This document shows, piece by piece, positions 9,937-47,961 of a stretch of 64,000 nt of DNA. The DNA lies in assembly GCA_020536535.1 (NCBI GenBank), contig JAHLWZ010000721.1, positions 1 through 64,000 on the forward strand, given 5' to 3'. The notes under the pieces were generated by a model, which was given only the letters and a program-made list of their open reading frames with translations, had not been told where the DNA came from and ran no database searches. A program made the translations under genes and the position numbers. This stretch comes from Pelomyxa schiedti (lineage: Eukaryota; Protista; Evosea). Each line of letters begins with the position of its first letter. Within the stretch, counting starts at the first letter, position 1.

Positions 9937-11017
9937 CAGAGGGGGTTTGTTGCGTGCTCAGCTGCATGAAAGTCCGACCCCCCGCAGTATCAGATCGTCG
10001 GCAACAAACAGATCCTGCGTGGAAGATCCAAGTCAGAAAAACCGAGAGTACAACGTGGAGGAAATGCATACTCGGCAAAGGCGGTTGCTTCCTCGGGGCG
10101 ATTCGCGGCGGAGAGCCTGCGTATCACCGTGTTAGCGCTGTTGGAAAACCAACAAAAAGAAACAGCGCGAATGCGTGGGGGAAAAAAAAAAAAAACGAAG
10201 GTGGGAAGTGTACCTACGACCATGTGCAGCAAGAAACGATGTCTAATTCGCGTGTCGGTATTGTAGGTCTCGCGTTACGCGTTGGTTGTTTTCAACAACA
10301 CAACACGACAACAACTGCTCCCCTTTGTTTTCATACGTTACTATGGAGACTGTCGCTGCGCTTTTGATAGTAGAGTAAATGCATTTTACTCATTTCCGCT
10401 GATTTCCAGGCAACACTGGCTTTTTGAGCTACTTCTGTGATTCCTAATCGCTTTCCCTATTTCTCATTAATGGGGAGTGCTTTATGGGTTTTTTTCCTTG
10501 TACATATTATGTGGACTCCCGTTACGAGGGAGGGAGAAGCCCATTGAGTTTCCTGTCACTTAGCGTGTATGAACGCAATCCTTTTGGAAACCATGGCAAT
10601 CAAACAATTAAAGCCATCAGTACAGGATTCTAACCACACTCCTTTTCTCAAGTCACAACAAAATGCATACTTGTGATAATGACTGCAGTTTGTATACAAT
10701 GACCAATAGTTTGGTACGAAACACTCACCTTCGAGATGTGCCCTGGGTACTTTCCCGTATTTATGCCTGTGGTCCAGAGGAAGTTCCGCGTGGGTTTCCA
10801 GGAACTTATTCCAGCCACACGCGGAACAATTGCTAAAAAAATGTAGATCCGAACTTTGCATTTCAAAGAAGGTGACTTTTTTTCTTGCCCGTGAGCCCCA
10901 AACCAAGGCCTTGGGGATTTGTTTGTTCCATTCCGTTTTAAGCTTCCCTCGAACAAACAAAACACAAACCACAACAATTCCTGTTCTGCTGGGAAAAACA
11001 AACACTCGCTCATCATC

Positions 11018-12654
11018 ATGAAGAACCTGCTCGTCACCACCTCGTGCTTTCTCCTGGCCGTCCTCGTCAGCGTCGCTGCACCCCACAATTCATTACCACC
11101 AAAGTCCCTCTCTGCCAACGTAGGTCCCCTGGACCTCGTTACTACGTGCACGGGCCACGCTGATCAAGAACCCCCTCCCCCAGTCTATTACGAACACAGG
11201 GGTTACAGGCCAGACTGGGACCAGTCATCAGATCCAAGCCTTCCTCAGTCCTACAGGGACCTCATGCTGTCTTACATGGAGACTTATGCTCAGCAGATTC
11301 TGGAAAATGCACCTCCGCACTGGGAGTATTTTTACGGGCCGTATGTGTATTATGGGGGCGCTGGTAGGTCTCTGGCATTTTTGAGGCTATATAAGTATTA
11401 TTCCAGTGTTGGAAGGTTGGATGATGCTGCCTCTGCTCTGGCAAATGCCGTGGAATATTCCAGATATGCTGTACAGAGGTGTGATCGCCCGAGTGAGGAC
11501 AACATTGCTTTCTTGAAGGGTCAACCGGGTGTTTATTCAGTAGCTGCTGTGGCTTATGATTTGAATGGGGACCATCAGAGTGCATTGGAATTGATTGACT
11601 CCGGAGTGAGGCAGGCCTTTTTGAATGTCACACTTTTATCTCCTCCCTTCTTTGACTTGGGAATTGCCGGTCTGCTGTATTGTGCAAGGTAAATTTAACA
11701 ATAAAAGGGGTTCAAAGGGAATATATGGTCATATATTTACTTAATACCCACATATTAGGTTCTTGGAGTCATATTTTGGACAAGTGATGATAGAAAGAGA
11801 ACTTATTGTTTCTGCTGCCAATACTTTGTATGAAATTGGTTTGGCAAATTCATCACCGGAAGGGGTCCTTCAGTACCCAGATGACTCTGGAATTGCTTAC
11901 ATTGGCCATGGAATGGGAGTGGCAGGTTTCTTCCTTACCTCTTCATCAAATCGTAACTTTTCACTGCAGGAATTCTCAGAGAACTCATGCTCATCCCTGA
12001 GATAACAGAAAATTCTGAAATTATGGAACATATTCACCTCACAGTAGACATGATTGTCGGTAGACAGGAACCCACCGGTCAAGTAATGGAAACCCAGTCA
12101 GAGTTCATTCCGCACCCTTACATCAAAGTACAATGGTGCCACGGGGCTCCAGGCCAGGTCATACCCACAATATAAAATAGCATCCTTCTCAAGGTCAACA
12201 ACCAGGTTCCCGTGTTTTCTCTAGCAGCAAAAACATTCCCGACAAATTCTACCCTCTACAATGAATGTGCCTACAATGCAGCCAATTTCACACTCCGGAA
12301 GGGTGCTCTTGTAAAAGGCATGTGCTTGTGTCATGGAACATCCGGAAATGTGTATATGCTTCTTGATCTCTACGCCCACACAAAAGACCCCCAGTGGCTC
12401 TACAACGCGAATACACTTCTCATGTTTGCATGTGAGACTCCCTCTATTCCCCTATTCTCCGCTTCTAACACTTCACACCAAAAGTGGATACACCGGAACT
12501 CACAAGTTGGTCTACAATGGTGGCCTGGGACTGTGTGCCCTACAGTGTATTTGTTGACAGTGTAGTTGCAGCAATGGCCACATTTGCAGACTTTTTGACA
12601 AACATTGATGCCCCTGAGAATTCTTCAATGCCGGCTTGGGGTTTGTCATGGTAA
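11018..12654 (+). CDS. LanC-like protein (LanCL/GCR2 family) with N-terminal signal peptide
   Basis: YYGGAG, FLKGQPG, DLGIAGLLY, VQWCHGAPG, KGMCLCHGTSGN, C-terminal PYSVF..F.DFL...P. N-terminus MKNLLVTTSCFLLAVLVSVAA. Confidence 0.88.
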
Positions 12655-36628: not shown

Positions 36629-36990
36629 GTCGCGCTGGCAAATTATGGGCACTAAGATCCACAGAACGCACGACCGTCACTGCACCTCCACCGCACAAAA
36701 AGATCGCTCGTAACTCCGCTTTGTGTGTTACGTTGTTTTTTTTGTTTTCTGACCAAATAAATAAGATCAAAGGTTGAACTTCGGGGAAGGAAATTGTCAG
36801 CTTAGTAGATCCTGAGCCGCTGACCGGTGCAATCATCTTGGGTGATAAGGATCCCCCAGGATATCAGCAGCACTAGTTCTTGCAGTACTCCCTCAGTGAC
36901 CTTGGTTCTCGGCACTCATCAATCGATCAATGGATCGTTCCACGGAACTTCGGCAAAAAACAAAAAACAAAAAAACAAGTCGAACCGGAG

Positions 36991-39900
36991 ATGAGCAACC
37001 CCTTTGATGACGACGACGTTACGCCGCCCCCCAAGACCGTGGGTTCGATCCCCAGCGGCACCGGTTTGGGTTTGTTCAGGCAGCTCCAGCCGACAAAGCC
37101 CGCAGCAGCACCCACCTCGCAGCCTCCCACAATCCCAAAGCAGCAACCGCCTCCCAAAGTCACAACCACAACAGCCCCCTCCCAGTCCCTCAACCCCTTC
37201 GACGACGACTCCGACACCTCTGCCGTTTCTGTATCTGTACCAGCTTCTACTTACGGCGGCGCCTCTTCGACTCCCCAATCGTCACAACAACAGCAGCAGC
37301 CAAAGAAATTCATGCCCTCCGTGGTTCCTTCTTCCGTGGGCACCAAGTTGGCTCCTCAGCCTTCCTCCTCCTCGTCGTCTGCGTCCTCTTCGTTGAACCC
37401 ATTTGATGACGATCCTCAGCCGGTTCCCGTAACTGCTAAACCTGCTGCTATTGCTCCAAGTGCTACAATTAGCACAACTAAAAATACCCCAATCCCTTCA
37501 TCAGTGCAACACACTCCTTCTTCTAATCCTTTTGATGATGACACACCCTCTGAAGCAACTGTGACTCCTCAGGTGACAAAAACCACCACTTCTAACCCAT
37601 TTGAGGATGAAGAAAGTGACCCACCAGAACGAATTTCTGCTGCACCAATAAGACCCGTTCCAGCCAGAGTGAACCCTGGAGTTCAATTATCATTAACACC
37701 TTCCAACACAACATCAAAACCAACTGTTACATCACAACAACCTCTAGTCACCACTAAAACCGCAACATCAGGTCCGCCACTGGTAATTCGTCCAACACCT
37801 TTATCAACTACAAAGACTCCAACAGAGGTCAATAAAACTACAACAAGCTTTCCAAAAGGAGCTTCCACTTCCTCTCTTCCTTATCCACCACCTGCTCTCT
37901 CTCCCCCAGGAAACTACACATCATCTGTATCTCCTAATATCACCACTACAACACATTCTCCACAGGCTTCGACTGTACCGAGCACAACTACAAACACAAT
38001 CAAAACCTCAACTTCCACTTCCACTACACCAACCGTAACCAAGGATCCAACTGGTGCCACTAAGGAAGTTGTCACTGTGAACGAAGGCCTACGTGGTGAA
38101 GAACTGGTTGCTGTCATCATTAACCAAATAGGACTACTTGACGATTTATTCTCTTCTTCGCGTTTCAAAAGAAACACCGGTAGAGCATCTCCGGCAATTC
38201 CTGTAGTACCGAACTCCACCACACCTGGGGCAACTCCCAAAGATTCCAACTATACACAGTGGCGTCTTGCACTCATGAATAACGCCTCCACCAAGGGATT
38301 GATTTCGACGGAGGTAGGCGTTTGAATTGAATGTTTTCTGTTAATTCAGTAACTTGCAGGGGATTAAAGATAGAAGGAACCACTATCTAAGATTCAGGGA
38401 ACAGCTGCTTGTCAACAAATTTGGCAGGTCTCAATTTGATTTATTCTTTCTCTCCAACTTGCTTATAGACCTGATATTCGAAATCCCACTGTTGAAAAAC
38501 CCCTACCTAATCCACTGCCAATGACACCCTCTCCTGTACACACATCTGCCACTGCTACACCATCAAAGCCTACAGGGAGACCAAGAGCATCCACAGTTGG
38601 TGGGGAAATTCTTCCTGTAAATCGACAGGTTTTTTTAGGCCTCCTTTTTATTTTTTCATGGTCACATTCCCATAGAGTTGGACAAAGAAAACGGCTGGAA
38701 CAGTATATGCGTTTGCTGGAGTGCATCATATATTTACCTGTCATTCTCGGGCAGGTACGTTAACTCCAGTGAGCATTTTGGATGTTTGCCTTAAAGATTG
38801 GTTTTAGTGAAGGTAATAAAATTTGCTAATGATGACCGGGACCTGTTGGCGTTTGCCTCGGATGACGGCACCATATCAGTGTGCTCAGTTCTGACAAACC
38901 CAACTTGTCTCAAAACGCTCTCTGGGCACACACAATCTGTCACCGGTAGAAATTCGGTACAATAAGTACTTCATTAACTCACAAATAGATTTTGATTGGG
39001 GAATGACAAACGATACTATTGTTTCAACTTCTGCTGATAAATCATTGCGAATCTGGGTCGTGGCAGAGTGAGCAATGTGTTTCCCTGTTTTTGTTGTTTG
39101 CTGACATAGTGTTAGTGGAAGCTGCCCTCGCATCATCCCTGACAAAGAAATATGTTGGTGCTGCCGATATTTGCCAACAAACGGCAATATTGTCATTGTG
39201 TGTACCCTCCACTCAGCCTTTCTATGTGATGCAATTCTTATTTGCTTTATCTTTTCCTTGGTTTTTTTCCCTGCTGTTTTTGATAACTTTTTTCTTCCCT
39301 TGATTTTATGAGTGCTTGTTTATTCAGTTTTCTGTGGTGTTAATTGTGTGGGTTCTCCCCTTTCCTCTTGGTGTAGTATGGAACAGGACCACAAAACAGC
39401 TTACAAGGAAGCTTAATTGCTGTTAACGCAAGCACTGGTAGGACAGTTGGACTACTCAAAACAAAAGCTTCCGTACTCTGCATGACATTTGATGGAACTG
39501 GATCCTATCTCTTTGTGGGAGACAGCAAAGTACGTTACAATCCACCTTGTCCATATAACCCACATTACACTCAGGGAATTGTGACAACACTCCGAGTTCA
39601 CGGATCTGGGCCAAATTTCTTCGAACCTCTGCGAACAAGCAACGTTGTTTCACCCCCACATAGTTTGCAGTTCAAAGGATGGACAACTAACAACACTTAT
39701 GAGCCTACGCTGTTGGCCTGCTGCCTAGATAATTCTGTGCGATTTTTAGGGTAAAACCTTCTCAAACAAGTTGCCTGTGCCACCTAAAAATATTACAGTT
39801 GTGGGCCAAACGTTCTTGGGACATTCACAACAAAGAACAAATTCGTAGTCAGAAGCGGAAACAACCGCATCCGCGCTTCGTTCTGTCCTTTGATATCCAA

Positions 39901-40214
39901 GTAAATGCCTGTTAATCTTATAACACAAAACCTTATGTGCACATAAGGGACACTGCATGCATCGTGTGCGGGAGTGAAGATTCTTCTGTATACATCTTCG
40001 ATCTGTTAAGGTATTCCAAAGGAGCTACAGACGGCTTTCACCTCTCTAACATGTCACCAACAGAAGTGACAACAAGCCCATCAACAAGTTACAAGGTCAT
40101 TCTGGTGTTGTTTTTGATGTGTGCTGGTCATATGATGAAACAATGCTAGCATCATGTGACCAAGAGGGCACAGTATTTGTCTGGAAAAGAGTCCTACAAC
40201 CCTCAGAAGCCTAA
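36991..40214 (+). CDS. WDR13: WDR13-like WD40 protein with a long NPF-motif-containing disordered N-terminus
   Basis: YAFAGVHHIF..H, KFANDDRDLLAFASDDG, GHTQSVTDFDW, IRASFCPLI, IVCGSEDSSVYIFD, VWKR. Five NPF[DE]D[DE] motifs in exon 1. Confidence 0.85.
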
Positions 40215-40674
40215 AAGGTCCCTGAATTCTATTGCTTAGCACCACAACAAACAAAAAGACAAAAAACATGCACACAACCAAACAAGCGGAAAAAGAAAAA
40301 TCCACCCCCCCAAGACAAGCATGTACCCCCGGAACTACTAATCCAACTTGGCTGCAGGGGGATTTCTCGTGTGTCCATTCCACTGCCAAGAAGCGGGGAA
40401 ACAAATTATGGCAACGAAAAAGCAAGGAAACCGCCGGCGTCGGGTCCCGCCACGTTCGCGAAAATCGTTCTGCTGTCTTTGAAGAAATCAAAATCTTGTA
40501 TTCCCTTTTTGAGTGAAAGTGATATTTGGCCAGTTACTGCCGAAAACTACAATTACAAAGGACGCAAGGAAAAATTAAAAAAAAACCTTGGAAAAGCAGT
40601 ACGGTGGCGGGCGCACGAAGTCACGTGTCCGTAAAGAAATTAAACGAGGGCCACTACTAATCTGTGAGTGTGAG

Positions 40675-43600
40675 ATGGTGCAGAGCCGGAGGTGCGACAG
40701 ATGGCAATGCGGATCTGGCGATTGTGGTCGCCGAGCGAGATCTGTGGGGGTAACTTGTTTGGGCCGGATCTTGGCGAGATCGCTGTTTGCTGTTTGTTGC
40801 GTGTTGGGGTTCGCTCTGTCTGTTGGCGGTAAGGTTTGCAGTCAAAAGACACCTGTGAAAGTGCAGTTGCACTGGACAGCACAAGCGCAGTTTGCTGGTT
40901 ACTATGCTGCACAGGCGCGTTTGTCTCCATTCCAATGTTCAGTTTTAAATTAGATTTTTTTTTTTTTTTTTAAATGCAGATTGCTTCCTCCTAATATGAT
41001 GATATAGGCCCTGGGGTACTTTTCCGACGAGTGCCTTGATGCCAAGATTATTGCTGGTGGCCCTGGCTTTGATCCTGTTGTGGAACTAACAAGTGGAAGA
41101 GCACAGTTTGCGAATCTCTGGGCTGGAGCAGTCATTGGTGCTCGGGAAGCTAATATTCCTTTGGTGGTCGTGAGCCAATTATGGCAGAGTACCAGTTTGA
41201 CATGTGTTTCCTTAAAAACTTCAGGCATAAGTAATCCTACTCTATGGCCAGGCCACAAAGTCGGCGTATGGGATGTAACTGGACTGCCCACTGAGGTATG
41301 AACTCTTATTCCTGTTAACGGTTTTTTCTGACTCTCACTGTAGGTTCGAGCTCTGGCCCTCTCACAAGGGGTCCAACTTTCTGAATACGACGAAGAAATT
41401 CAGCCTTTCAATGTTCTGCCACTCTTTGACAAAAGTCTTGATGTAATTTCTGCCATGACCTACAACGAACTGTCATTAGTTTTTGAGACAATCAACCCAG
41501 ACACTGAAGACCTATGGTCCAAGGACGATCTGTACATTGTCTCTCCTGCCGACAGTGGTGTTGTCATTGTGGAGGATGGTGTTGCAGTTACAGAAGAATT
41601 TCTTGAAAATAACTCCACCATTGTTGAGGCTTTCTTGCGGGGACTCACTAAGGGATGGCTGGCCTGCAGAGAAACACCCGAGTACTGTGTAGGGCTGCTT
41701 CCTATCTCTGATGATCACCAAAGATGGATGATGAATGAAGTCAACCATATGCTGTGGTTGCACCCAGGGAGTCCCTTTGGAATTCCTACGGAAGCAGCCT
41801 GGAATAGCTCTCTTGTTCTGACGCACAGCATTGGTGCTCAAAATAATTCAATTTCAGACCCCATCTACACCAGAGCCATTAACACTACTATCCAAAGGAA
41901 CGTGGATGCAATATTGAGTACAGAAGGCTATGATGTATACGGCGAGAATTACACTTATACTCAATATAAGTGGTGTCTAAAATGTGGAGGTGACAAAGCA
42001 GAATTGTGTGCAATCGATAAAACCAATGGGACAATATCAACAGAGATTATTGTGGCTATTGTTGTCCCTTTTGCTGTGACGGGAGTTGTTGTCACAATTG
42101 TGCTCGTTGCACTGCTTCACAAACTTAAGAAGATTCACAACAGAGTTCAGCAACTAGAACTGGAAATTGATAAGCGTGCTTGCTTCAGTGTTGTTGGTGC
42201 TCCTGCTCAGCAGGCAATAGACACACTGCTCAAATTAAAGAGGAAGAGATTTCTAAAAGACTCTGATCACTGTGAACTGTCACGGGTGGTCTCACTTATT
42301 GCCAGCAATAGACTTTACAACTCAGACATGCTCCACCAAGCCCTCCAGAACAACAAGGTTGACTCAGATGTTGATGCCTTTCTGGTGGACCTTTTGGTGA
42401 AGCATGATACTGTAATTGCCAATGTTGTACGGAGTGACACAGCCAGCAGTGTCATGACAATTCTTAACGAGGCTGACCCCACTCTGTCAACGCAGCGACT
42501 ATTCAGAAGTCCTCCAGTGGTCGCTGTTGATGCCTCTTCTAGTGCACTAGCCATTTGCGGTAACAGCGGATGGGATTTTGACATCTTCTCTATGGCGCCG
42601 AATACAATGTTCTCACGTATGAAACTTAATCCTTGTGCGGTTTTTTACTTATCAACAGCATTCGAAATGATTGGATTGGCATTATTGGAAGAGTTTGGAC
42701 TGGTGGCGCATTTCAAGTTGGACGTGAGACTTCTCATATCATTTTTCAGGCGAATTTATTCTGGGTATTGTGCCACAAATCCCTACCACAATGCTCTCCA
42801 TGCTGCTGATGTTGCCCAAGTACTTCTCAAAAAAATGGAAATGTCGGGCTGATCTCCTTTTTAGGGAATGGGGGTACTACTACGACAATATCAGAATGAG
42901 TGCCAAGCCCAACTTGACTCTCAAAGCATGCTTACCCCAATTGAACTTTTGAGTGCGGTGATTGCCTCTCTGATTCATGATTACGGGCACCCAGGTATGA
43001 ACCTTCCTTAAGAAATGCAGTCTCACTCTCCCCAGGCCTAAATAATAACTTTATGACTGCAACTATGCATGAAATAGCCCTCAGGTATTCTCAATATGCG
43101 GTAGTCTCTCAACTCATGTGTATAGATACAACCTTCTTTCTCCACTGGAAAATATGCACGTTTCTGAGTCACTTCAGATTTTACTCAGGTTCATTTGGTC
43201 TTTTTGTGCTTTTAAGAACCAACAAGTTGCCAAACAGATCTGAAAATAACTTTTTGGCCCAGATTCCGAAAGAGGAATACTTAGAGTTTCATAGAAACGT
43301 TGTAACTCTAGTCCTTGCGACAGACATGACAAGACACATAGAAATTACTGGACAGTTTACAGCCAAACTCTCTGCTGCGGGAAATACGGGAGAGAGGTTC
43401 GTGCCACTGTTATTCCCTCCCACTCACCTGTTCCCAGAATGCTGAAATCAAAGGTTGACCACCTGTTGTACCTTCAAATACTCCTCAAGTACGCGGACAT
43501 CTCGGCTCCCTCCAGAAAATGGAACATATGTGAACGTTGGGCCTATTGTGTCCGCGACGAATTCTTTGCCCAAGGGGACCGGGAGCGTGCTCTCGGGCTT

Positions 43601-43813
43601 CCTGTGAGCCCCTGTATGGACAGGACTAACACTAACTGGGCCAAGTGCCAGTCATCATTCCTCAAGTATGTGGTGATACCTCTGAGTGAGGCGGTGTCAA
43701 AGATAGTGGACACAAACTCGATGAAAATCGATAGCAACCTCTCCGACAACTACCAAAACTGGGCGTCACTGGAGACACGGAACTCCACAGCAGGAGACAC
43801 CAAGATTGTATGA
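40675..43813 (+). CDS. Receptor-like class I cyclic nucleotide phosphodiesterase: signal/anchor + NMT1/THI5-type solute-binding domain + TM + PDEase_I
   Basis: VQLHWTAQAQFAGYYAAQALGYF...IIAGGPG, KVGVW, AMTYNE (ThiY/NMT1-like SBP); TM IIVAIVVPFAVTGVVVTIVLVALL; PDE motifs YHNALHAADV, HDYGHPG, LATDM, ADIS, EFFAQGDRERALG. Confidence 0.9.
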
Positions 43814-44253
43814 AACAATCAATTTTGACATCATACCACCCCACTGCATATTATCACATCAAGAACCACACACCAGTATGGTGCACCAAACAACGTGCTC
43901 CGTATGTAGCAACCTCACTTATGTAATCATAAGTACATGAAAAACCAACTCGGAACAGATTTTCTAGTTTTTTTTTCCCCTGTTGATTTCCAACAACACG
44001 GTGAAGCGTGCCGGGGTCTCAAAAAAACCGTGAAAGTGTGGTGATGATTCTTCATCGGTTTGTATTGTCGCTTGTGAGGGTGTTTGTGGGAGCTCCGCGG
44101 TTCCTTGTCCTAGGGTCTAGTCACTGTGAGAAAGCCCGGCAAACCTCTGGGCGTTTGGGAAATTCCATATTTCCCCGCCTTTCACTTCGACGACTTACAG
44201 AAAACAAAGACAAACATTTTTTTAAAAAAGAAGGCACCACCTCAAGATCCGAC

Positions 44254-45366
44254 ATGTCCGCAGACTACGACTACATCTTGTTGGGACGGAAGAACTGGCG
44301 TCCTCATGCCGTGCGGGAAGATATCTTTGCAGAGTTGCCGTACCCCTCAGAAGTGTATGTCCAGTCCCCGCTCATCTCCATCTCCTTTCTGCACACTGAT
44401 GTCCGCAGGGAGGAAATAGACCGTCGCGCGAAAAACTTGGTTTGGTACAAATTCAAATCATTAGAATTGCTCAACCACACGCTACATCATCCCGCTGCCG
44501 CTCGTTTGCGCCTCGAGATTGCCACGGATTATTCTAAGAAATGGAAGAAGTACATGGTGAAAGCAGGATTGGGACTATACAAAGACCCTGCCAATACTAC
44601 TACATCACACCAAGTGCCTGCCCCTTCACCAGCGCCTCTTATTTGTTCAACCTCACAGCAGCTTAAAGACGCCCCTGCCACTGTTTTACCACCTGCCTAC
44701 ACAGACACTACTGGTCACGAACCTCCAAAGAGTTATGGTTGTTCCACAAACCAAGATGTAGTGACTACCTCAACTCCGTCGACAACCTTTGCAGAACCAA
44801 CAAGAAGTGGTCCTGATGTCACCTTTGGGATTGATGATTCCACCAAGTTGACACATTCTAGTTGTGAACCACCCTTGGCTGGGCGTAAAAGGAAGATGTG
44901 CACACTAGATTCACATTCCTCTCGGGAACTGGAAGGAGAAGAGCCAGGAAAGGGATCCTCAGCATCGCACTATGTGGTGTCCACTTCACAAGTCAGAGTA
45001 ACCCCTGCACCCACCCCAACCCAGCTGCTATCACGTGGCGAAGTACTTGCAAAATCTGGTGCCCCTCACCTTGCTCCTACACCAAACAAAAACATTGAGG
45101 CTATGTCCGGCACTGAGGTTTCCTGTGGATTTACTGAGGATCCCACAGTCAGGGTCGTTGAAGCAGGTTATTGTTTGTCACCTGTATTTGGAGTTCTAAT
45201 TTGTACCATAGCTCAATTCCCTCAAATTTCTCCTGAAGTAAACACTTATGCTGTGACAGGCACTGATCCCGCACCCTCCGCAGTTGCTACCCATGGTATC
45301 ATAGTAGGTTATTGGGATGGTCCCCTACTACACCCACCAGAACCGCTTATAGAAGAGCAGGAATAA
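44254..45366 (+). CDS. Hypothetical protein, single exon
   Basis: 370-codon ORF from MSADYDY; helical-looking N-terminal 110 aa followed by a Pro/Thr/Ser-rich region. Confidence 0.65.
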   Translation: MSADYDYILLGRKNWRPHAVREDIFAELPYPSEVYVQSPLISISFLHTDVRREEIDRRAKNLVWYKFKSLELLNHTLHHPAAARLRLEIATDYSKKWKKYMVKAGLGLYKDPANTTTSHQVPAPSPAPLICSTSQQLKDAPATVLPPAYTDTTGHEPPKSYGCSTNQDVVTTSTPSTTFAEPTRSGPDVTFGIDDSTKLTHSSCEPPLAGRKRKMCTLDSHSSRELEGEEPGKGSSASHYVVSTSQVRVTPAPTPTQLLSRGEVLAKSGAPHLAPTPNKNIEAMSGTEVSCGFTEDPTVRVVEAGYCLSPVFGVLICTIAQFPQISPEVNTYAVTGTDPAPSAVATHGIIVGYWDGPLLHPPEPLIEEQE

Positions 45367-45612: not shown

Positions 45613-47961
45613 ATGGAGGTGGATTCGACGGAGTTGTTGGTGTTACTCTCGTCGTTGGTTTTGTTGTTCGCCATCCTCCTCGTTATCCTCACCAGTTCAT
45701 GGAAAGTGCTTCACGTATTGCATGGTGCGGGCCAGTTATCCCTATACTTCTTTCCCTGAGAGGTTTCTTCGTTATTTTCCTTACTATGTCCCAAAAAAGA
45801 GTCTGGGGCGGTACTTATATTTGGGGTACTCATTGGCGTGATTACGTGGCTGGTGTGCATAGAAGATATACCTTTTATTTTGTTTCTCTTAATTGTCATG
45901 TCTGATGTTGTCTTAACGCTATTGAGTTAATAGATTGCAAACTTTCCACCCTACTACCAAATTCCTATATTGATGCCTTCAGCTATAAGAGAAATGTTTT
46001 ATGTCATTTTACTCCCTTGTATCATCTTTAATGCTGGTATGCAATTCTTTGAATAATCCCCTTGAGGTAATTCTCTACAGGTTTTTCAATGAAAAAAAGA
46101 AATTTTTTCAAGAATATTGTATCTATTCTGACCTATGCAGTTTTTGGCATGTTTATGTTGTGTTTCCTGTAATTTTTTTGTGGGTTATTCTTTTTTCACC
46201 TGGAACCTAACCTTTACCAGGAACTATTGTATCTTGTGCCACCTTTGGTGGTGTACTTTATGGGCTAGGATATGCAGGCTGGATACCAAGTGCAAACAAT
46301 TTTATTGAGTGCATGTTATTTGGTGCTTTAATGTCTGCTACTGATCCAGTTGCAACACTCGCACTTTTTTTAGTAGTATTTTCAACCTTTGTTGGAAGTT
46401 AATCCTGTTCTCAGGAGCTAAATGTAGACCCCTTACTTTATTCACTTGTATTTGGTGAAAGTGTTCTAAATGATGCAATTGCCATTGTGCTTTTTAGGTT
46501 CAAAGTACCTGCTCATTCTCCAAGTAACCCAATTTCAGAACTCTTTCTGGGTTCATTGGAGTGGAGATTGACGCCATGATTCTTCCCAAAATTGTAGTCT
46601 CATTTCTAATTATTTCTCTGGGATCTCTTGCTGTTGGCGTAGGAATAGGATTTTTTTCTGCTTTTGTGAGTAGAAGTATTTTTTTTTCGTTTGTCTCTAA
46701 CTGGCCAAGGTGATGAACAAATTCAGACATCTTTCTCTGTCACCTACTTTTGAAATGACATTAGTTGTATTTTGGGCTTATATATCATACCTGTTGGCTG
46801 ATGTCATCCATTTATCTGGCATTTTAGCATTATTTGTTGTGGCTATTCTATCTAGTCACTATCATTGGTCTTTTCCTTATTATTTACATAGTTTAATTTA
46901 CCGATTCAATAGGTATTCAATAGCCCGCACTTCGAGAATAACACTATTTTATGTAGCTGGGTACTCCTCTTTTATCCAACATTGTTTAGTCTCACCAAAG
47001 CAGAGCAGTCTCATTCGTTGCTGAAACGGCAGTCTTTTTATCTCTGGGACTCAGTCTCTTTGAGACAGATGACCCTTTTAACAGCGAAGAATGGGACTTT
47101 TTATATATACTTGCCTCATTGGTAACCCACCTACCTTCAGTCTTGATTCCTGTGTTTACGCTCAAATAAGCTTCTGTGTTTCATCAGCCGGGCAGCAAAT
47201 GTCATCCCTCTATCCCTTCTATTGAATCTCTTCCGAAAACAGAAAATACCTTTGAAGCACATTGTAGTTCTGTGGTTTGCAGGTTCCACGTTAATGCTGT
47301 TCCGTTTTTTTTTTTTTAATTCAAGAAATTCCAGGTCTCAGAGGAGCAATTGCACTTATTTTGGCTCTTAGTTTAACAACCCCTCATGCAAGGTTGATAA
47401 CAAATACTACCTACGTTATAGTGCTATTCACCAATCTGGGAATAGGGTGAGCCCATTTATTTACACCATAATTACCAACTAAAACGCTTGGCAGCATAGC
47501 TACAAAGCCGCTTCTTTTGATCCTGAAAATCGAAGCCGGCGGAGATGTAGCCTTCAACGTCCGCGATCCCGAAGTCGACCCGGTACGCGAAATCTCATCC
47601 AAAACTCCCAAAACTCACCAGAGGTCTCTCTCCGTACTTAGCAATCTCTAACCAACGATGATGCCACGGGATCCGCGGCCAGATTATCACAACCACTGAT
47701 CACTCGTACACAACACAAATCCAGGCTCCACGACGCCTGGCGAGCCTTTGATGACAAGTAAGTCGAAAATCCCGCAGCCACAGCCACCCAATTTTTATCC
47801 CATAACTTACCAACACCTTCAGGTTCCTCAAGCCCATGTTTGGTGGGAAGCGAGCCGACGTCGAAGGCTCAATCAATGTTGACCGTGAATATGACCCAAG
47901 TATCACATCACGCACTGTCCGCACACTCAGAGACACAACATACTCTGAGATACGGTTTTGA
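45613..47961 (+). CDS. Na+/H+ exchanger, CPA1, organellar NHE/NHX type
   Basis: LLPCIIFNAG, FGALMSATDPVATLA, LYSLVFGESVLNDAIAIVL, SYLLADVIHLSGILALF, WFAGLRGAIA. Confidence 0.92.

Follow-up and report, generated by a model that had tools for sequence, protein, structure and literature searches.

Eukaryotic surface receptors with built-in enzymes include kinases, phosphatases and cyclases; among the last, the trypanosome ESAG4 family of receptor cyclases is expanded and has varied ectodomains. A membrane sensor is fused to a class I cyclic nucleotide phosphodiesterase (PDE) via a helical linker in the rhodopsin-PDE of Salpingoeca rosetta, which is multi-pass and light-gated. In Dictyostelium, the PDE RegA is fed by sensor histidine kinases, and Pde4 has an extracellular catalytic domain. 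Here, we describe a receptor-like class I PDE gene of Pelomyxa schiedti, located at 40675..43813 (+ strand) of a 64-kb stretch of intron-rich eukaryotic DNA (contig JAHLWZ010000721.1, positions 1 to 64,000; the whole stretch is called the window below). The gene has 9 exons and encodes a 912-amino acid (aa) protein in which a solute-binding domain of the NMT1/THI5 fold precedes one transmembrane (TM) helix and a PDE domain. The anatomy of this class I PDE, a putative receptor gated by a chemical, is strongly supported, and its function is predicted. To our knowledge, the light-gated rhodopsin-PDE is the nearest case to a chemically gated receptor PDE, and no class I PDE serving as a chemically gated, cAMP/cGMP-destroying receptor was found in the literature searched. 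The NMT1-TM-PDE architecture, noted in an initial annotation of this DNA, was likewise not found described there, in a search that covered few subscription papers and not the supplementary architecture figures (e.g. PMC4758236 fig. S15), which may show it.

Domain architecture, topology and gene model

Pfam domains, hydropathy and the 9-exon gene model agree on the architecture first read from the letters of the sequence. NMT1 passes the cut-off in two exons, at E 1.4e-12 in exon 2 and at E 7.4e-6 in exon 3, and PDEase_I is matched in downstream open reading frames (ORFs) at E 3.7e-12 and 5.7e-27. Protein P0001, whose C-terminus matches the window model, has a PDEase_I E value of 4e-70 (236.7 bits against a cut-off of 24.8). 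The parts of the protein are as follows:

40768..40824 (+), hydrophobic leader, aa 32-50: predicted signal peptide or signal anchor, hydropathy maximum 2.2
40837..41970 (+), NMT1/THI5-fold solute-binding ectodomain, aa ~55-385: Pfam NMT1, ATP-binding cassette (ABC) subfamily of pyrimidine catabolism
41971..42015 (+), Cys-rich stalk, W-C-L...L-C, placed by alignments
42046..42117 (+), single TM helix, aa 411-434, with basic residues after it: hydropathy 2.9
42118..42180 (+), juxtamembrane coiled-coil segment, predicted to be continuous with the TM helix
42181..42405 (+), conserved helical regulatory module, by a profile built here
42367-42402 (+), last helix of the module: candidate autoinhibitory helix of the PDE4-UCR2/PDE1 type
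42565..43774 (+), class I cyclic nucleotide PDE catalytic domain, aa ~584-900: Pfam PDEase_I

All metal-binding and catalytic positions of the PDE that were checked are present, and the initial annotation had noted the metal-binding motifs as complete: when the YHN..H, HD..H, E..H, TD and D motifs, the invariant Gln and the clamp Phe were checked, 17/18 positions matched the family. The single mismatch is a specificity position, the equivalent of PDE4 Asn321, which is Ala (aa 811, window 43502-43504) in the window protein and in the Pelomyxa paralog P0003 and Asn in 44 of the 46 rows of the clade described below. The adenine-contacting Asn is replaced by Ala in PDE5 and PDE11; because the window protein recalls these enzymes here, cGMP or dual specificity is possible.

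The leader, single TM helix and several sequons noted in the initial annotation are borne out by hydropathy, which detects exactly two hydrophobic segments, and by 9 NxS/T sequons, of which 7 lie before the TM helix (up to aa 404) and 2 after it. Lys and Arg around the TM helix number 1 before and 4 after. The leader is preceded by a basic n-region of unusual length (31 aa); a homolog from Rhizamoeba saxonica, P0211, has a short hydrophobic N-terminus that may be compared with it. These biases extend to 44 family proteins picked for a TM helix preceding the module: sequons average 1.51 per 100 aa before the TM helix and 0.43 after it, their density is higher before it in 43/44, and Lys plus Arg are higher after it in 37/44, following the positive-inside rule. 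In 122 bacterial relatives of the binding domain, sequons occur at 0.26 per 100 aa, compared with 1.96 in the window protein. A hydrophobic N-terminus is present in only 26/44 family models, which counts against the receptor reading. For the window protein, hydropathy, charge and sequon statistics together describe a type I single-pass protein (leader, ectodomain, one positive-inside TM helix, enzyme) with its two domains predicted to lie on opposite sides of the membrane. An outside N-terminus and an inside PDE are thus predicted with high confidence, and the binding domain (the head) is very likely extracytosolic, at the cell surface or in a vacuole lumen, because the sequon and charge biases are found both in this protein and in the 44 family members. 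In an AlphaFold2 (AF2) model of P0003, helix 413-449 runs unbroken through the TM and coiled-coil segments, and the register after the TM helix is nearly fixed across family members with different ectodomains.

The gene model is composed of the following parts:

40675 (ATG) to 43813 (stop) (+), 9-exon model of the receptor-like PDE gene
40675-40914, 41008-41295, 41344-42616 (+), exons of the 5' part
42659-42819, 42865-42994, 43036-43084 (+), exons of the middle part
43126-43188, 43238-43396, 43438-43813 (+), exons of the 3' part
40915-41007 (+), intron 1, putative GC-AG with a poly-T run inside, from homolog alignment
41296-41343 (+), intron 2, putative, from gap-free homolog alignment

Six of the eight introns, all GT-AG, 41-49 nt long and in the PDE region, are confirmed by joints in RNA contigs from one study. 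Exon 41344-42616 encodes, without interruption, the C-terminal half of the binding domain, the TM helix, the coiled coil and the juxtamembrane module, and an RNA contig spanning 42616/42659 joins the module to the PDE in the transcript. The initial annotation had placed the fusion in the single ORF 41455-42852; the fusion stands on this exon and RNA joint, but the ORF is not one exon because an in-frame intron of 42 nt (42617-42658) lies inside it and it runs on into another that begins at 42820. Exons 1-2 and the interval 40041-41478 have zero RNA cover, which counts neither way, so introns 1 and 2 are placed by gap-free alignment with homologs: splicing out intron 1 removes all gaps relative to P0003 and to bacterial relatives. 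In P. schiedti, 1.59% of introns are of the GC-AG type (PMC8887013).

The lack of RNA cover over the first two exons leaves room for a different 5' end, and GenBank KAH3758970.1 provides one: a 1655-aa WD40-SBP-PDE reading (SBP, solute-binding protein) in which an upstream WD40 gene is spliced onto exon 2. This reading leaves out the binding domain's first conserved motif, along with 21 internal residues kept in all homologs, so the GenBank fusion is probably a prediction error. Homologs begin with a leader rather than with WD40, the WD40 ORF ends at its own stop, and the binding domain is linked to the module within one exon and the module to the PDE in RNA. That the GenBank protein is correct, or that our architecture is an artefact of modelling or assembly, is therefore extremely improbable. 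The upstream gene (window 36877-40214, +, stop at 40214) encodes a long Pro/Ser/Thr-rich N-terminus with NPF repeats, then WD40 repeats, and five of its introns are RNA-confirmed. Single-base mismatches between RNA contigs and the window, at 43720 and 37356, are probably strain or allele differences.

The binding domain and its predicted ligand

The AF2 model of P0003, which mostly has a predicted local distance difference test (pLDDT) score of 90+ over the binding domain, was used to compare the head with solved structures. The best Foldseek match is ThiY (3IX1; E 4.7e-15, 17% identity, TMt 0.81, root-mean-square deviation 3.4), and by structure match the head is 15-18% identical to ThiY, to a thiamine-bound SBP (4NMY) and to THI5; TauA and SsuA have the same fold. 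Its nearest relatives are bacterial binding proteins annotated NitT/TauT, at 34-43% identity. Of 57 columns that 90% or more of the 26 bacterial rows have in common, the window protein keeps 41, the head shares the motifs W-x-x-Q-A-Q-F, M-T-Y-N-E, E-D-G and H-Q-x-x-M-x-E-V with this subfamily, and in the head tree it nests with bacterial members (94/99). We consider it probable that the pocket still binds a ligand.

The initial annotation suggested a ligand related to pyrimidine or thiamine, and the Pfam name, the best solved folds (ThiY and the thiamine-bound SBP) and two retained residues could be taken to favour thiamine or an aminopyrimidine precursor (HMP or FAMP). The ThiY pocket makes its contacts through Asp-Trp and Tyr...Glu. 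In the window protein, the aligned Trp and Glu are kept, whereas Asp is replaced by His and Tyr by Met; with two of four pocket residues changed and relatives in pyrimidine-catabolic operons, the head does not have the profile of a FAMP/HMP-binding ThiY. In THI5/NMT1, Lys62 and His66 bind pyridoxal phosphate (PLP) and a CCCxC motif is present. The Lys62 and His66 positions (the latter located in structures 4ESW/4ESX) correspond to Leu117 and Ala121 of the window protein, as mapped via P0173, and the CCC run is absent from the model, unlike in an HMP phosphate synthase. Genes for thiamine were absent from the common neighbouring clusters that were examined. Thiamine is thus unlikely because identity to ThiY and THI5 is low relative to that of the subfamily found in pyrimidine-catabolism operons and the THI5 Lys/His pair is missing; a receptor PDE for thiamine or its precursors is very improbable.

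Gene neighbourhoods point to pyrimidine catabolism. From 36 matched records, three annotated bacterial loci were opened, and 3/3 carry dihydropyrimidinase and further pyrimidine-catabolic genes: RutR, a Zn hydrolase and hydA in Sinorhizobium; preA, hydA, a hydrolase, an aminotransferase and methylmalonate-semialdehyde dehydrogenase in Deinococcus; and an aminotransferase, a dehydrogenase, a nitrilase and hydA in Thalassospira. A further locus, L084, has dihydropyrimidinase above the cut-off together with other pyrimidine-catabolic genes. In S. meliloti, SMc01823-27 is described as a uracil/uridine uptake system induced by both compounds (PMC2848018, PMC3484140, PMC6421345); for SMc01827, the reported evidence is induction by uracil and uridine together with 5-fluorouracil (5-FU) sensitivity, not direct binding (PMC6421345, PMC3484140).

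Several results weigh against a uracil-type ligand and bring in the alternative that the receptor senses a small amine or sulfonate of an unrelated kind (beta-alanine, taurine), or a ligand newly adopted after transfer. The Sinorhizobium locus examined is likely SMc01823-27 by gene order, without a sequence match. In the closest, mostly Chloroflexota, relatives, the ABC operon includes a class III aminotransferase in 61/80 GTDB loci, and in the PDB this enzyme matches taurine:2-oxoglutarate aminotransferase best (E 4e-98, with 5e-74 for the runner-up). Dihydropyrimidinase is not among the common gene clusters at the loci of this nearest group, which, with the aminotransferase only, also fit beta-alanine or taurine; a PLP decarboxylase lies beside the transporter at some of them. 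Some positions near the presumed pocket that are conserved in bacteria are altered (N173, E174, G143 and L252), so specificity may have drifted, and both the long branches of the eukaryotic heads and the fold shared with TauA and SsuA would suit such a change. On the other side, in Deinococcus and Thalassospira a class III aminotransferase lies within the pyrimidine operon, at a late step, and the 61/80 loci also count in favour of the pyrimidine reading. We regard this alternative as improbable, if less so than thiamine. The ligand is rather likely to be uracil, uridine, thymine or a dihydro-, ureido- or beta-alanine intermediate in place of thiamine; our best guess is a pyrimidine of the uracil route, followed by beta-alanine or taurine.

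The receptor PDE family and the origin of the head

The fusion of NMT1 and PDEase_I also occurs in P0003 and in Mastigamoeba proteins P0124 (a tandem pair merged into one model) and P0125; P0002, an ENA/Logan protein, has the same head, TM helix and module and stops at the start of the PDE. A tree built from just the catalytic domain places the window protein, P0003, P0124 and P0125 in a single group (SH-aLRT 97), so the fusion is probably older than the split between Pelomyxa and Mastigamoeba. A metagenome scan of 8 loci revealed no further NMT1-PDE genes: one locus encodes a eukaryotic G protein-coupled receptor (GPCR), and 7 are of bacterial type.

Beyond these carriers, the catalytic half is found with many other heads (the counts are lower bounds, being drawn from top-150 and top-120 match lists). 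Among the best 150 representatives for P0003, many align from the TM helix onward and differ in their N-termini. A Pfam scan of 47 of these 150 and 20 further proteins identified dCache_1, PBP_like_2, Peripla_BP_6, OpuAC and SBP_bac_3 as well as CUB, LamG/Big_9, VWA and EGF, and many heads had no Pfam match. In a FastTree phylogeny of 141 catalytic domains (144 rows, 3 dropped for short cover), 30/32 rows classed by a hydropathy rule as single-TM-plus-ectodomain fall in one 46-row clade (0.962), with NMT1, dCache_1, PBP_like_2, Peripla_BP_6, CUB, LamG/Big_9 and VWA ectodomains. A quick IQ-TREE analysis of 72 hand-picked rows (P0182 was removed by a length filter) recovered a 25-row core clade (SH-aLRT 99), in which all 18 rows with species names are Pelomyxa, Mastigamoeba or Mastigella. 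Single-TM PDEs also lie outside the clade (P0162 with OpuAC, P0133, P0179 and P0375, all four weakly placed, and P0248), which counts against the favoured reading. By sequence comparison, the window gene is one member of a large, Archamoebae-rich family of single-pass PDEs with swapped ectodomains, numbering dozens. Separately, P0248 has an ANF_receptor ectodomain, one TM helix and a class I PDE; its position far from the Archamoebae clade suggests that it arose separately, as a possible independent receptor PDE.

The variety of heads can also be read in another way, namely that the protein is a membrane-anchored PDE that is constitutive or regulated from the cytosol, with an ectodomain used for sorting, clustering or adhesion only, so that binding of a ligand would have no effect on the enzyme. 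Adhesion-type heads (VWA, LamG, Ig, EGF) do occur in the family, the juxtamembrane module is also found in PDEs with zero or many TM helices, and Toxoplasma is described as having many TM-bearing class I PDEs without defined regulatory domains (PMC7720076). However, pocket columns are conserved between Pelomyxa and Mastigamoeba, small-molecule sensor folds have been recruited repeatedly (Cache and at least 3 periplasmic binding protein types), and the register from TM helix to coiled coil is near-fixed despite different ectodomains. We judge this explanation unlikely, while giving it more weight than the alternative ligands, and continue to favour a receptor.

In the head tree, all five copies from eukaryotes group together (98/97), nested with a bacterial subgroup that has the same insertion (94/99) and whose named members are Chloroflexota and Actinomycetota; the eukaryotic branches are long, and the tree does not single out a bacterial donor. 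In P0211, the same head forms the N-terminal domain of a 7tm_3 class C GPCR, and a metagenomic eukaryote locus (L086:4500-7853) has the same pairing of an NMT1-type head and a 7tm_3 GPCR; the head therefore serves as a receptor head elsewhere. All of these eukaryotic heads have the Cys-rich stalk, including those of the Mastigamoeba PDE and of the GPCR from Rhizamoeba, and the bacterial relatives lack it. GC content and GC at third codon positions (GC3) are alike in the binding domain (0.46/0.43) and the PDE (0.46/0.50) and so give no hint of a recent transfer. The simplest reading would be that the head entered Amoebozoa early, in a single transfer, and was afterwards shuffled between GPCRs and PDEs. 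The bacterial type of the domain, as read in the initial annotation, is supported; its acquisition is old, shared with the Rhizamoeba GPCR and not specific to Pelomyxa.

In the P0211 and L086 receptors, the NMT1/THI5-fold head replaces the usual Venus flytrap; these are possibly pyrimidine-sensing GPCRs in amoebae. At L088:779-3747, a bacterial NMT1-type binding protein is encoded directly before a membrane protein of 653 aa, for which NCBIfam has no match at 1e-30, and the pair may be a two-gene sensor using this fold.

Elsewhere in the window, fragments of a Na+/H+ exchanger gene lie downstream (45700-47200, +), a 453-aa ORF between them and the PDE gene (44005-45366) has no Pfam match, and 10895-11692 (+) has a weak LANC_like match (E 1.4e-4, below the cut-off).

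The candidate switch helix and comparison with known systems

The profile of the ~95-aa juxtamembrane module, for which there is no Pfam model, matches 113/150 rows (the best 150 for P0003), including multi-TM and GAF PDEs, and also matches chytrid, oomycete, Thecamonas and Acrasis PDEs. The many multi-TM class I PDEs that share the module (P0158, P0161, P0176, P0210, P0224, P0230, P0231 and others) have 4-7 helices, and their TM part has no Pfam match in those scanned; oomycete multi-TM PDEs with the module carry an Ion_trans domain.

A family profile matches the last helix of the module to the helix NQVSEFISNTFL of PDE4D, and the alignment also reaches into PDE4B (4WZI), from residue 136 on. 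At the positions of PDE1B V97, W100 and L101, family rows have V in 34/49, F/Y in 45/49 and L in 35/49, and the distance from the aromatic residue to the catalytic W-x-F-D motif, 64 residues, is equal in 7/7 motif-bearing PDE1 proteins fetched. Relative to the inhibitory-helix pattern V, W/F, L/I, T, F, whose residues share one face some 42-46 aa ahead of the catalytic domain, the V, F and L positions and the spacing are present, and the T and F positions are both Leu. Other results detract from this likeness. The PDE4D alignment is carried by the catalytic domain; hhalign places the helix in register with the PDE1 inhibitory helix weakly (P 0.018, probability 2.5%); and a module-only profile searched against the PDB gave 11 matches at E<=10, none of them a PDE. 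The equivalent of PDE1 F105 is Leu in 40/49 family rows, a substitution that PDE1B is reported not to tolerate (PMC12610503). Modelling of the module by itself was uninformative: the AF2 prediction (pLDDT 70, predicted template modelling score 0.40) had no Foldseek match at E<=0.001 and a best VIA Z of 4.8. The ESM Atlas search gave no usable match, and in the full-length model of P0003 the PDE half is of low confidence because the alignment contained just two PDE rows. A capping-helix mechanism of the PDE4/PDE1 type is accordingly put forward only tentatively.

We favour, with some caution, a one-component receptor in which a small molecule outside, predicted to be a pyrimidine of uracil/thymine breakdown, would set cAMP/cGMP hydrolysis; that ligand binding alters PDE activity is a prediction we hold with the same modest confidence. 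The ligand would close the binding domain on the outer or vacuole-lumen side of an assumed dimer, and closure might then rotate or shift the TM-coiled-coil helix, a coupling step borrowed from receptor cyclases and kinases and proposed with some doubt. Movement of this helix would reposition the module, whose last helix could cap or uncap the active site like UCR2 in PDE4. The members of the family would each tie the removal of cyclic nucleotide to an external cue of their own, in a lineage reported to have lost eukaryotic sensor histidine kinases. More speculatively, the Archamoebae may have a class of one-component receptor PDEs in which swappable bacterial or GPCR-derived heads gate a PDE4/PDE1-type helix, replace the lost histidine kinases and, in the present case, sense uracil-type products.

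The Mastigamoeba genome paper notes that cyclases and PDEs have expanded and eukaryotic histidine kinases have been lost in Archamoebae, with no architectures given in the portion available (PMC8136499); phosphodiesterase, NMT1 and two gene identifiers had no match in one supplement file of this genome, figure supplements being outside the scope of that search. The family accounts for part of the PDE expansion, which in that portion is noted and not dissected (PMC8136499), and it is a testable candidate replacement for the lost histidine-kinase route. If the mechanism holds, a PDE4/PDE1 capping helix could be driven from across the membrane, and the amoeba would detect uracil-type breakdown products from prey or sediment bacteria. 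The swapped heads are a natural panel for mapping coupling and for ligand-controlled PDE tools.

The component parts and the logic of such a receptor are already known from receptor cyclases, bacterial sensor PDEs for cyclic di-GMP (c-di-GMP) and rhodopsin-PDE. Rhodopsin-PDE differs from the window protein, which has one TM helix and an ectodomain for a soluble ligand. Receptor cyclases such as the natriuretic peptide receptors likewise have an ectodomain, one TM helix, a coiled coil and a catalytic domain (PMC1592074); the likeness is one of layout, as they make cyclic nucleotides whereas the window protein bears the destroying domain. The same logic of an external sensor acting on a messenger PDE is described for bacterial c-di-GMP PDEs with Cache or PBP sensors and EAL or HD-GYP domains (PMC8915833, PMC1592074), in which the catalytic domains and the messenger are unrelated to the eukaryotic class I cyclic nucleotide PDE found here. 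SMc01827-type proteins are stand-alone transport proteins of 330-410 aa, whereas the head described here carries many sequons and a Cys stalk and forms one protein with a TM helix and a PDE. Apicomplexan membrane PDEs are TM-bearing class I enzymes, like the window protein, and are described as mostly without regulatory domains (PMC7720076), and Dictyostelium RegA is a signal-regulated class I PDE that is soluble and controlled by a phosphorelay (PMC4758236). PDE4 (UCR2; 4WZI, 3G4G) and PDE1 (PMC12610503) have the same catalytic domain and motifs and an upstream helix that is equally spaced and alike at 3/5 key positions; in the window protein the terminal Phe of this helix is Leu, and its stand-alone homology is not significant. 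PDE4 and PDE1 are soluble and under the control of protein kinase A or Ca/calmodulin, whereas the input to the window protein is a TM helix and an ectodomain.

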